In this document: piece after piece, positions 48,401 through 50,896 of the stretch
Numbering within the stretch: position 1 is the first letter of the stretch
How the letters are laid out: every line of letters begins with the position of its first letter
Notes under the pieces: model-generated
Told to the model about the DNA's origin: nothing
Databases searched by the model: none
Seen by the model: the letters and a program-made list of their open reading frames with translations, nothing else
Assembly: GCA_040954595.2 (NCBI GenBank)
Contig: CM082586.2
Span: forward strand, 1,679,124 to 1,743,123
Direction: 5' to 3'
Length of the DNA stretch: 64,000 nucleotides
Source of the DNA: Balanoglossus misakiensis
Taxonomy: Eukaryota > Animalia > Hemichordata
Made by a program: the position numbers and the translations under genes

Positions 48401-50896
48401 CAGTCCAATCCTCGGGAGACTGAACTCTCTGTGTAGCCTTTAACTTTATTGGTTGTCTCAATATGACAGCTCATCATTAAAGTCAATTTATTATAATTTT
48501 TATTGCAGAACCGGAGAATCTCGGAACATGAAGTATGTTACTGATGAGAATACCAGTTGCCGACATAGGTGGCTTGGGTTTGTGTTTTCTGTCCGTGTGT
48601 GTGTACATCAGCGCGCAGGGTAAATCAATGCAGATAAATTCAAGCATTCCGATTTTGTTCGGCTGGGTTCGTACTTTGAGCGGGCAGTGTTCTTCAAGCA
48701 TAATGTACTGGTGCTTTTGGAGCCCTGTGATATATATATATCAAGCTCACTAAACACCACATACTATTATTTCTTATTAAACTTTTGAAAATAAAGCCAA
48801 AAATTACAAGTAATGGAGCTTTAATTATTAAAAAATATAAAATAACAGACATGTCAAAATATAACAACATTGTCCCTTTAATAACATGTCAGTTTTATTT
48901 TAAAGGGGCAATGTCTCTTTAAATACATGTCAAAATATAGCAACAGTGTCCCTTTAATAACATGTCAGTTTTATTTAAGGGGCAATGTCCCTTTAAATAC
49001 ATGTCAGGGTTTTTTTTAAATAAGGGGGGGGGGTACAGAAAAATCCAAATCCAGGCAGAGGTACAGCAAACTTCACAACATCTAACTCCAAAACAAAAGA
49101 TAAACAGAAGAGAATTGTTTCTCTCAAGTCCTACATAACTTTATTTTTATTAAATATAAATTGTCTTTGGTTTTGGAGCCCTGCAAAATAATTAGGGATA
49201 TTTATGGTTTAAAAAAACACTTCTTGTAATTGTATTTCTTTTAAATCAATGACTTCAGGGTGAGTGACGCAGCCATTTATTTTTTTTCTTCCCTTCCCTT
49301 TAAAAGATTGACATTTTTAAGTTTAAGCGAGTGTTCTCCAAACACATATAAAATGGCCACATAAAGTTTTATGAGAGATCAGCATAATTTTTATACACTG
49401 GATCAGTGCCCGGGGAAAGAGAACCCATTGAACAAACTTTAGCAAGGACTCTTAGTACAAACGGGTATTCGAAACACCGATAATTACATGTAGGTGTGTC
49501 TACACATGTGTTTTGTTGAGATAATCCTCTTCAGTCCTGTCAGTCCATCTCGCAGGCTGGTCAGCACATCAGATGACCAGGCTCCACTGGCATATATAAT
49601 AACCCGGGGCCTTTCAGAGCAAATGACGGGGAACTAGGAAGTCAGTGTGTCTGGTGATATTGTCATGCGACTGGAAGCTCGGCGGATGGCTGTGATAACC
49701 TTTTGCACTCTACGCCAAGTAGTTTCTTTTCTACTGGGTATTTTCAACTCAGGTAGAAATCCGCAAAACGGTTCCTATCCTATCCTATCCTATGATCCTA
49801 TCCACTCTGTCGCCGGGTATGTGAGCACGTCTAAGGCTGGAGTTTCGCTATGCTTTTGTCCGAAGGGCACACTATTAAAACCGACACAAGCGTGACTTAG
49901 TTTTGTACTCCAATCAAGTCCCGACAATGGGCAAAACAAACTACCATTCAGCGTGTGAAATGACCTACAAACAATTACAAGCTGAACAGAAAAGCCTCGT
50001 TTCTTACGTAAATTGGCTTTAACGCTACTTTTCTGTGGAAGTACTGTACCGGACGCTGGGTTTCTCGCCCTGTCAAGAGTCACAACAACGCACATGTCGT
50101 TTGTTGGTGAAATGAACATTCCCAACTATCCTTGAAATCGGACCAAAACTGTTTGCATTGTGATTTTCAAGATAGCACTATCGCCGTCATGTAACGGATA
50201 GGGCTTGCGACAGCGTTATACTACACATTTGCTAAATGTACACAACTAATCAACTTGTCAGCTGCAGCGAAGGGAAGCCCCAAAACTGTTTAAAAAAAAT
50301 ATTGGCCTGGAAAACGACTTCCGCGTGTCTGTGTTGACATGTTTAGATTACGGGACCCTCAAATAAAACGCTATTGAACAAAGGATAAGTTTACCCGCGC
50401 ATACAGACACATAGTCGATTTTGGATCATTCTCACAGACTTAAATGTCAGCTTCTAGGGTTTGTATAGCTTAGAATGACTGGTCAAACGAACAAGTAATA
50501 CAGAACAGATCTAGACTGAGATGGTGAACCCTGTAGTCAACCCGTTGACATCAAAATTAACTCGAACATACACCAGGTCAAGTACATACACACATTTATA
50601 ATGTCAATAGACAATTTGTCGTCTCCCAAATTTGAAGTGTCTGAGAAAAATTATTCGGCTTCATCTTAGGAAGTATATCTTAGTCACCGTTCGCTAACAC
50701 ATTGTATTTACTTCCTATAAAATATAAGGCCACTATCGTGAGGGCATCCGCCTTTGCCTGTATAACGTTACAAACGCACAGCAACCGACCGTGTCCATCC
50801 CTATTTTCAGATGGTCGATATTGACCTACCTGTACGGTGCAGTTCCGGCGATTTGGACCCAACTTTCTCTTGTTTGACTAGGAAGGCTCTTGGCAT
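24215..50896 (-). CDS. Osr: Odd-skipped-related C2H2 zinc-finger transcription factor (5 fingers, OSR2A-like) with eh1 motif and predicted N-terminal SNAG exon, 328 aa
   Basis: join(complement 50830-50896, 27019-27658, 24215-24494) = 987 nt, in frame. Fingers: [138 protein letters not shown]. The motif [14 protein letters not shown] is present. The two body exons are near-certain; the join to the upstream exon is inferred from phase and motif. Confidence 0.88.
27019..27658 (-). CDS. Osr: Osr exon 2 (Pro-rich region, eh1 motif FDFANLA, zinc fingers 1-2)
   Basis: Acceptor ttttgttctcttgcag|CC (phase 1) at 27659/27658; donor CACAG|gtgagt at 27019/27018. Overlaps ORF 27015-27641. Confidence 0.95.
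34892..34936 (+). repeat. Imperfect (CT)n tract
   Basis: ctctccctctctctctctccctctcccctatctctctctctctct. Confidence 0.8.
43488..43580. mobile_element. 93-bp TTAA-flanked MITE (piggyBac-like termini), copy 2, in Osr intron 1
   Basis: TTAACCCTTTCAC ... GTGAAAGGGTTAA is a perfect 13-bp inverted repeat including the TTAA. Homologous to 14029-14121. Confidence 0.87.
43698..43718 (-). promoter_or_regulatory. Composite nuclear-receptor element (three half sites, DR1 + DR2 spacing)
   Basis: TGACCT-C-TGACCT-CA-TGACCC on the + strand. Confidence 0.45.
44335..44414. repeat. (GATT)n/(CATT)n compound microsatellite with internal inverted segment
   Basis: GATTGATTGATTCA (44347-44360) is complementary to TGAATCAATCAATC (44370-44383), and is followed by (CATT)n. 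Confidence 0.85.
45560..45668. mobile_element. 109-bp TTAA-flanked MITE with AGG...CCT termini (Kolobok-like)
   Basis: Perfect 16-bp inverted repeat TTAAAGGGACAAAGTC ... GACTTTGTCCCTTTAA with an AT-rich interior. An identical left end recurs at 44898-44913. Confidence 0.8.
48849..49006. repeat. Tandem duplication of a ~75-bp unit (2 copies plus a partial) containing collapsed AGGG...CCCT TTAA ends
   Basis: Units start at 48849 and 48925 (acatgtcaaaatata.caaca.tgtccctttaataacatgtcagttttattt...aaggggcaatgtc.ctttaaat); a third partial unit starts at 48999. Confidence 0.85.
50830..50896 (-). CDS. Osr: Predicted Osr first coding exon encoding a SNAG motif ([22 protein letters not shown])
   Basis: ATG in aagATG context (A at -3). 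Codons ATG CCA AGA GCC TTC CTA GTC AAA; donor ACAG|gtaggt is phase 1, matching the phase-1 acceptor of exon 2. It lies where CpG content visibly rises. Confidence 0.85.

Follow-up and report, generated by a model that had tools for sequence, protein, structure and literature searches.

A predicted SNAG-bearing isoform of odd-skipped-related in the acorn worm Balanoglossus misakiensis, probably ancestral and lost in vertebrates

The Osr locus and its distal first exon

The window, that is, the whole 64,000-nucleotide stretch of Balanoglossus misakiensis DNA that was analysed, contains an odd-skipped-related (Osr) gene on the minus strand (Table 1). Osr is a key regulator of the kidney and of gut boundaries, and its repressive activity is usually ascribed to Groucho. 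The body exon product was 88% identical to Osr of Ptychodera flava and 65% identical to that of Saccoglossus, the entries among its best 120 matches were Osr wherever they were named and unnamed or uncharacterised models otherwise, and zinc fingers 3-5 were 99% identical to those of P. flava Osr. Both the Osr-type finger array and the Osr best matches place the gene in this family, and the [KR]FDFANLA box before the fingers was found in the body exon as well as in relatives. Two plus-strand loci lie downstream of Osr in tail-to-tail orientation: SMCHD1-like exons at ~5590-15500 (with Pfam SMCHD1_S5 at 5590-6042) and a CRAL-TRIO gene at 18166-20959.

Table 1. Features of the Osr locus in the 64-kb window
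Feature	Position	Strand	Remarks
Last coding exon of Osr	24215..24494	-	Zinc fingers 3-5 and stop
Osr body exon, 640 bases	27019..27658	-	PPTPPLTP and KFDFANLA boxes, zinc fingers 1-2; phase-1 acceptor common to the first exons
Predicted intron of the SNAG isoform, 23,171 bases	27659..50829	-	Exons 1b and 1c lie inside
Exon 1c, alternative first exon	36450..36537	-	29 codons + 1 base, phase 1; TATA-like box at ~36594
Exon 1b, candidate alternative first exon	47299..47338	-	13 codons + 1 base, phase 1; matches P. flava X1 only
Exon 1a (first exon), coding part	50830..50896	-	22 codons + 1 base; 21 of 22 residues shared with P. flava Osr X3
SNAG-1 motif	50870-50896	-	Codons 1-9 of exon 1a
Stop in frame with the SNAG ATG	50930..50932	-	Ends a 27-codon upstream ORF begun at 51013
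TATA-like box 5' of exon 1a	51220..51226	-	Consensus match only

The initial annotation had described, far upstream of the body exon, an ATG followed by a 67-base coding part that ends in phase 1 at a gtaggt donor, and we found exactly this arrangement in exon 1a (ATG at 50896, 67 coding bases, phase 1, GTAGGT donor at 50829). The spacing of 23,171 bases, the phase-1 acceptor of the body exon (AG at 27660-27659, with a pyrimidine-rich tract before it) and the lack of any Met in the body exon before 27482 were also as annotated. Since exon 1a ends in the phase in which the body exon begins, the two can be joined without a frameshift, as had been proposed, and the predicted SNAG isoform comprises 328 residues with five C2H2 zinc fingers. 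The same join is present in isoform X3 of P. flava Osr (XP_070534415.1), in which 21 of the 22 residues of exon 1a are followed by the same body residues; X3 is an automated RefSeq model, and it is from this match that we infer the splice in B. misakiensis. The exon was therefore not 'hidden', as it had been called, having already entered a RefSeq model, but its assignment to Osr held: given the P. flava join and SNAG-first models in four other groups, exon 1a almost certainly belongs to Osr.

The SNAG motif lies at the extreme N-terminus, with Pro straight after the initiator Met, in both exon 1a and P. flava X3, and the nearest 5' in-frame stop, ~12 codons before the SNAG ATG, precludes an N-terminal extension in its frame within the stretch. 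When all six frames of the window were searched for MP[RK]xF, exon 1a was the single match. The longer form MP[RK]xF[LM][VI] is expected by chance 0.015 times per window (200 Markov shuffles), and the strict eight-residue SNAG form ~1e-4 times (analytic estimate). Scored with an approximate weight matrix, the exon 1a donor ranked 6th among 4,166 minus-strand GT sites and exceeded the donors of both other first exons, 1b and 1c. Above position 27,700, none of 22 ORFs of at least 100 amino acids matched a Pfam family at the cut-off (one weak DUF6498 match fell below it), and among the tblastn matches listed there were no further zinc-finger exons in the window. With no recognisable gene between 27,700 and 64,000, only Osr is recognisable as the taker of the exon 1a donor. 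That the SNAG match arose by chance, or is part of a different gene, is a reading for which one can point to the 23 kb that separate it from the Osr body and to a join in B. misakiensis that is deduced from a relative; set against the expected frequencies, the P. flava model with the same join, the gene-poor interval and the tblastn result, it is extremely improbable.

Pfam returned no match for exon 1a, nor a SNAG match for P. flava X3. In the PDB sequence set, which holds chains of 20 residues or more, the exon 1a query gave 0 matches and an N-terminal profile retrieved no SNAG chain, with a single unrelated match at E 0.9. Six ATGs occur in the 500 bases 5' of the SNAG start (50930-51400, minus strand), and it is possible that these ATGs and the 27-codon ORF, if transcribed, dampen translation. 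The observed/expected CpG ratio was 1.04 upstream of exon 1a, 0.34 upstream of exon 1c and 0.71 in the whole window.

Three probable alternative first exons

The initial annotation took the Osr body to be the next coding exon on the same strand; this did not stand, as two phase-1 exons, 47338-47299 (1b) and 36537-36450 (1c), lie between. Exons 1a, 1b and 1c all end in phase 1 and fit one body acceptor, and exon 1a is likely the most distal of three alternative Osr first exons. The presence of two further phase-compatible first exons in the 23-kb gap also makes it likely that the SNAG peptide is optional.

The 13 codons of exon 1b match the last stretch of what is unique to P. flava X1, and its donor is weaker (rank 106 among 4,166 sites with the same approximate matrix). 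Upstream of exon 1b, similarity to the longer N-terminus of X1 is split over two frames (47299-47430, minus strand), for which reason the X1 extension is probably 5' UTR. Exon 1c has homologues in P. flava X2, Antedon X2, Acanthaster, Asterias, Patiria and a sea-cucumber-type protein; its length is exactly 29 codons in six genera or types, with a YY[SG]WQ..SACRD core, and across ambulacrarians it is better conserved than exon 1a and than the flank of the SNAG motif in 1a. A Pfam search with exon 1c gave no match, and we recognised no function for it. The SNAG and 1c isoforms diverge at one common position in each of four genera (Ptychodera, Antedon, Acanthaster, Asterias), and this divergence point suggests that the two-start architecture is as old as Ambulacraria. 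A third, Cys-rich N-terminus, unlike exon 1b, is common to the sea star models Patiria X2 and Asterias X1.

Distribution and history of SNAG-first Osr proteins

We collected 252 Osr-signature proteins from homology searches and cluster look-ups, none of them from Drosophila or tunicates. A motif filter split them into 102 outside the vertebrate type and 150 of vertebrate type; the 102 included four named vertebrate fragments without the motif, which we moved by hand. The SNAG motif was present in 36 of 98 non-vertebrate proteins, against none of 154 vertebrate ones; isoforms and near-duplicates are among those counted, and the counts should not be read as independent events. In a control set of 148 unrelated poly-finger proteins it was absent. 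The initial annotation had held that vertebrate Osr has no SNAG and had pointed to relatives as a place to look for the N-terminal motif, and both were borne out among the proteins collected. Carriers were found among hemichordates (Ptychodera, Saccoglossus), crinoids (Antedon, Anneissia), sea stars (Acanthaster, Asterias), amphioxus (three Branchiostoma species) and bivalves (five Mytilus species, Saccostrea, Magallana, Mya, Mercenaria, Ruditapes). Of the two histories it had offered, the ancestral state is favoured by these models in several phyla, whereas an exon gain specific to this lineage was rejected in view of the carriers in crinoids, sea stars, amphioxus and bivalves.

The motif begins at residue 1 in 30 of the 36 carriers, at residue 3 in two and further in in four, the last being oyster models with 5' extensions. 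The Magallana models begin 20-64 residues ahead of the SNAG Met and would leave the motif buried; these extensions are likely mis-set starts since other members of the cluster begin at SNAG. Across 15 representatives from four phyla, M1, P2 and F5 were invariant (15/15), residue 3 was K in 11 and R in four, and residue 8 was K or R in 12 (N or S in three clams). Past ~residue 9, where SNAG-2 would fall, identity among the carriers fades and we saw no conservation. Conservation of the motif next to a diverging flank speaks for selection acting on the SNAG peptide.

No motif was seen in the protein models of Lingula, Dreissena, sea urchin, onychophoran, chelicerate, barnacle and springtail or in the second amphioxus paralog; the survey consists of protein models, mostly automated, in which a distant micro-exon is easily missed. 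Since the Lingula, Dreissena and panarthropod models have no motif, the protostome evidence is confined to bivalves. An N-terminal profile search gave 12 matches at E<=10, every named one a deuterostome, and was too insensitive to show absence, as the bivalve carriers were found only with a longer query. A profile search of 50% representatives was uninformative (148 of the best 150 matches were poly-finger proteins and the other two were already among the collected Osr proteins). In amphioxus, one Osr paralog has SNAG and a degenerate PPTPP box and the other starts at PPTPPLTP without SNAG; the two features may have been divided between the duplicates, or an exon may have been missed.

Exon 1a might be conserved and yet minor or vestigial, with most Osr made from exon 1c or from an internal Met, so that SNAG recruitment matters little. 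This would fit the better conservation of exon 1c in ambulacrarians and its TATA-like box, the several ATGs upstream of 1a, the SNAG-less Osr models that also exist for most carriers, and the precedent of amphioxus Fezf, for which PMC2942887 describes an in-silico SNAG not found in transcripts. However, the motif has been kept despite its diverging flank, the 1a donor is the strongest of the three first exons, and SNAG contigs of an oyster cluster appear spliced. In that cluster, a protein starting at SNAG is represented by 59 contigs, none longer than 1,417 bases, and crosses the finger-2 intron position at which its cluster-mate ends; contigs this short that read across this position suggest spliced RNA, and hence expression in oyster. 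We therefore consider a marginal role for exon 1a quite unlikely.

A splice of exon 1a to Osr could also be combined with separate gains of SNAG in bivalves and deuterostomes, or in ambulacrarians and amphioxus. The motif is short (~eight residues), there is no likeness between phyla past ~residue 9, and the motif-free Lingula, Dreissena and panarthropod models would be accommodated by such gains. Against them stands a motif alike in position and form in 15/15 representatives of four phyla, and the documented pattern for SNAG is one of repeated loss: parsimony infers 11 losses of SNAG-1 in Snail/Scratch (PMC2688512), an ancestral SNAG of Fezf was lost in bilaterians and kept in non-bilaterians (PMC2942887), and SNAG loss is cited as recurrent in a review (PMC3342872). 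A further hint comes from an oyster model that is missing exactly the first 22 residues and has a different starting residue; this would place the junction at the same codon as in exon 1a, which is suggestive only. Separate gains are thus unlikely, if slightly less so than a marginal role for exon 1a, and a single origin with losses is favoured because it is more economical in assumptions than a history of two or three gains and agrees with the literature. A tree of the fingers placed the carriers among Osr proteins of several phyla; built from 37 selected rows and no outgroup, with 16 of 33 inner branches open and long mollusc branches, it does not test single origin.

Overall, SNAG-Osr is very probably ancestral rather than repeatedly gained. 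Judged by the models, the isoform likely goes back to the protostome-deuterostome ancestor, and vertebrates likely lost it, the tag occurring in starfish, amphioxus and bivalve models but in no examined vertebrate one. Osr is reported only from Nephrozoa (PMC10565955), in which case the bivalve and deuterostome carriers reach back to about the origin of the family; PMC7535936 calls it bilaterian-wide. Snail/Scratch and Fezf are established examples of recurrent SNAG loss, to which Osr would add a case.

Models of lamprey and hagfish contain PTPPPTP, a remnant of the invertebrate PPTPPLTP box, just before an MGSK-type start, a position suggesting that vertebrates initiate at a Met that was once internal to the old body exon. 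Osr1 models of cartilaginous fish and bichir have MPT-first extensions with a common Cys-containing start; having no basic residue 3 and no F5, they were rejected as SNAG. A VLPAPIPVYP stretch in Lingula Osr resembles the vertebrate N-terminal ALPAPIP[LI]HP box, which suggests that this box predates vertebrates. A wider reading, at a little below even odds, is that Osr originated in the protostome-deuterostome ancestor as a SNAG repressor, that ambulacrarians have retained from their last shared ancestor a promoter switch between an LSD1-recruiting SNAG tail and the YY[SG]WQ..SACRD module of 29 residues with its own partner, and that vertebrates dropped both by starting at the internal Met, with PTPPPTP in lamprey and hagfish models as what is left upstream.

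Predicted LSD1 recruitment and comparison with known systems

We put at about 0.75 the probability of the reading as a whole, namely that exon 1a is an optional distal SNAG exon of Osr which recruits LSD1-CoREST, is ancestral and was lost in vertebrates. Transcripts from promoter 1a would splice across 23 kb to encode a five-finger SNAG-Osr, from which the initiator Met would be removed; that removal of the first Met exposes Pro1 is established knowledge. By analogy with SNAI1, GFI1 and INSM1, the Pro-Arg-x-Phe tail would then dock in the substrate cleft of LSD1, and SNAG-Osr, holding DNA by its fingers, would bring in LSD1-CoREST-HDAC. The 1b and 1c promoters would yield Osr without the LSD1 hook, such that promoter choice would act as the switch.

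Exon 1a keeps the SNAG core residues P2, R3 and F5 and has A4, K8 and Q9 where SNAI1 has S4, R8 and K9. These differences, like the K at residue 3 in most of the 15 representatives and the N or S at residue 8 in three clams, count against the reading; GFI1, INSM1 and OVOL also depart from SNAI1 at residues 4, 8 and 9, so that the mismatch need not be disqualifying. P2, R3, S4, F5, R8 and K9 are the critical residues of SNAI1 (PMC5066116), a SNAIL hexapeptide binds weakly on its own, P1 and R2 of the mature peptide being the crucial ones (PMC5453194), and nucleosome deacetylation by LSD1-CoREST-HDAC1 is boosted by SNAIL through SNAG and fingers (PMC13316430). On these analogies, we regard binding of LSD1 by SNAG-Osr as probable. 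SNAG-2 is the second half of a 21-residue domain and is seldom found together with SNAG-1 (PMC2688512).

In a full-text literature search, which most subscription papers lay outside, we found no paper joining SNAG or LSD1 to Osr in the text it covered; SNAG-Osr is present but unremarked in RefSeq models. If the reading is true, an ancestral SNAG isoform puts Osr among the few LSD1-recruiting factors, vertebrate Osr changed its corepressor wiring, and one gene offers a natural pair with and without SNAG in which LSD1 recruitment can be gauged. It would also be a warning that family comparisons made through vertebrate and fly proteins miss SNAG tails on distant micro-exons. In a hemichordate larva, osr marks gut boundaries and not the nephridium (bioRxiv 2020.11.15.378034).

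The nearest counterparts of the B. misakiensis isoform are XP_070534415.1 (P. flava X3) and XP_006814614.1 (Saccoglossus), which have the same first-exon peptide, with the same junction in P. flava, and carry no label beyond 'odd-skipped-related 2-like' or 'uncharacterized'. Vertebrate OSR1/OSR2 and Drosophila Odd/Bowl share the finger array and are described as repressors, and the vertebrate proteins also have the [KR]FDFANLA box; unlike acorn-worm Osr, all 154 vertebrate proteins are without SNAG. Odd reportedly recruits Groucho, in an account by Goldstein from 2005. Fly Odd and Bowl have C-terminal eh1-like motifs (PMC1310626), whereas none of the eh1, CtBP and WRPW patterns matched in P. 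flava X3; barnacle Osr gave a match. An exchange of corepressor motifs between Osr lineages fits these patterns, thin as they are.

SNAI1/2, GFI1/1B and INSM1 resemble the predicted exon 1a-Osr protein in having an M-P-R-x-F-L-V-basic tail joined through a low-complexity linker to C2H2 fingers at the C-terminus (PMC5066116, PMC5453194, PMC13316430). They differ from it in that the acorn-worm fingers are of the Osr family and the tail lies on an apparently optional first exon. As with Fezf, a family taken as SNAG-less from vertebrates and flies would have had an ancestral SNAG (PMC2942887); unlike Fezf, in which SNAG was kept in non-bilaterians, Osr keeps it in several bilaterian phyla.
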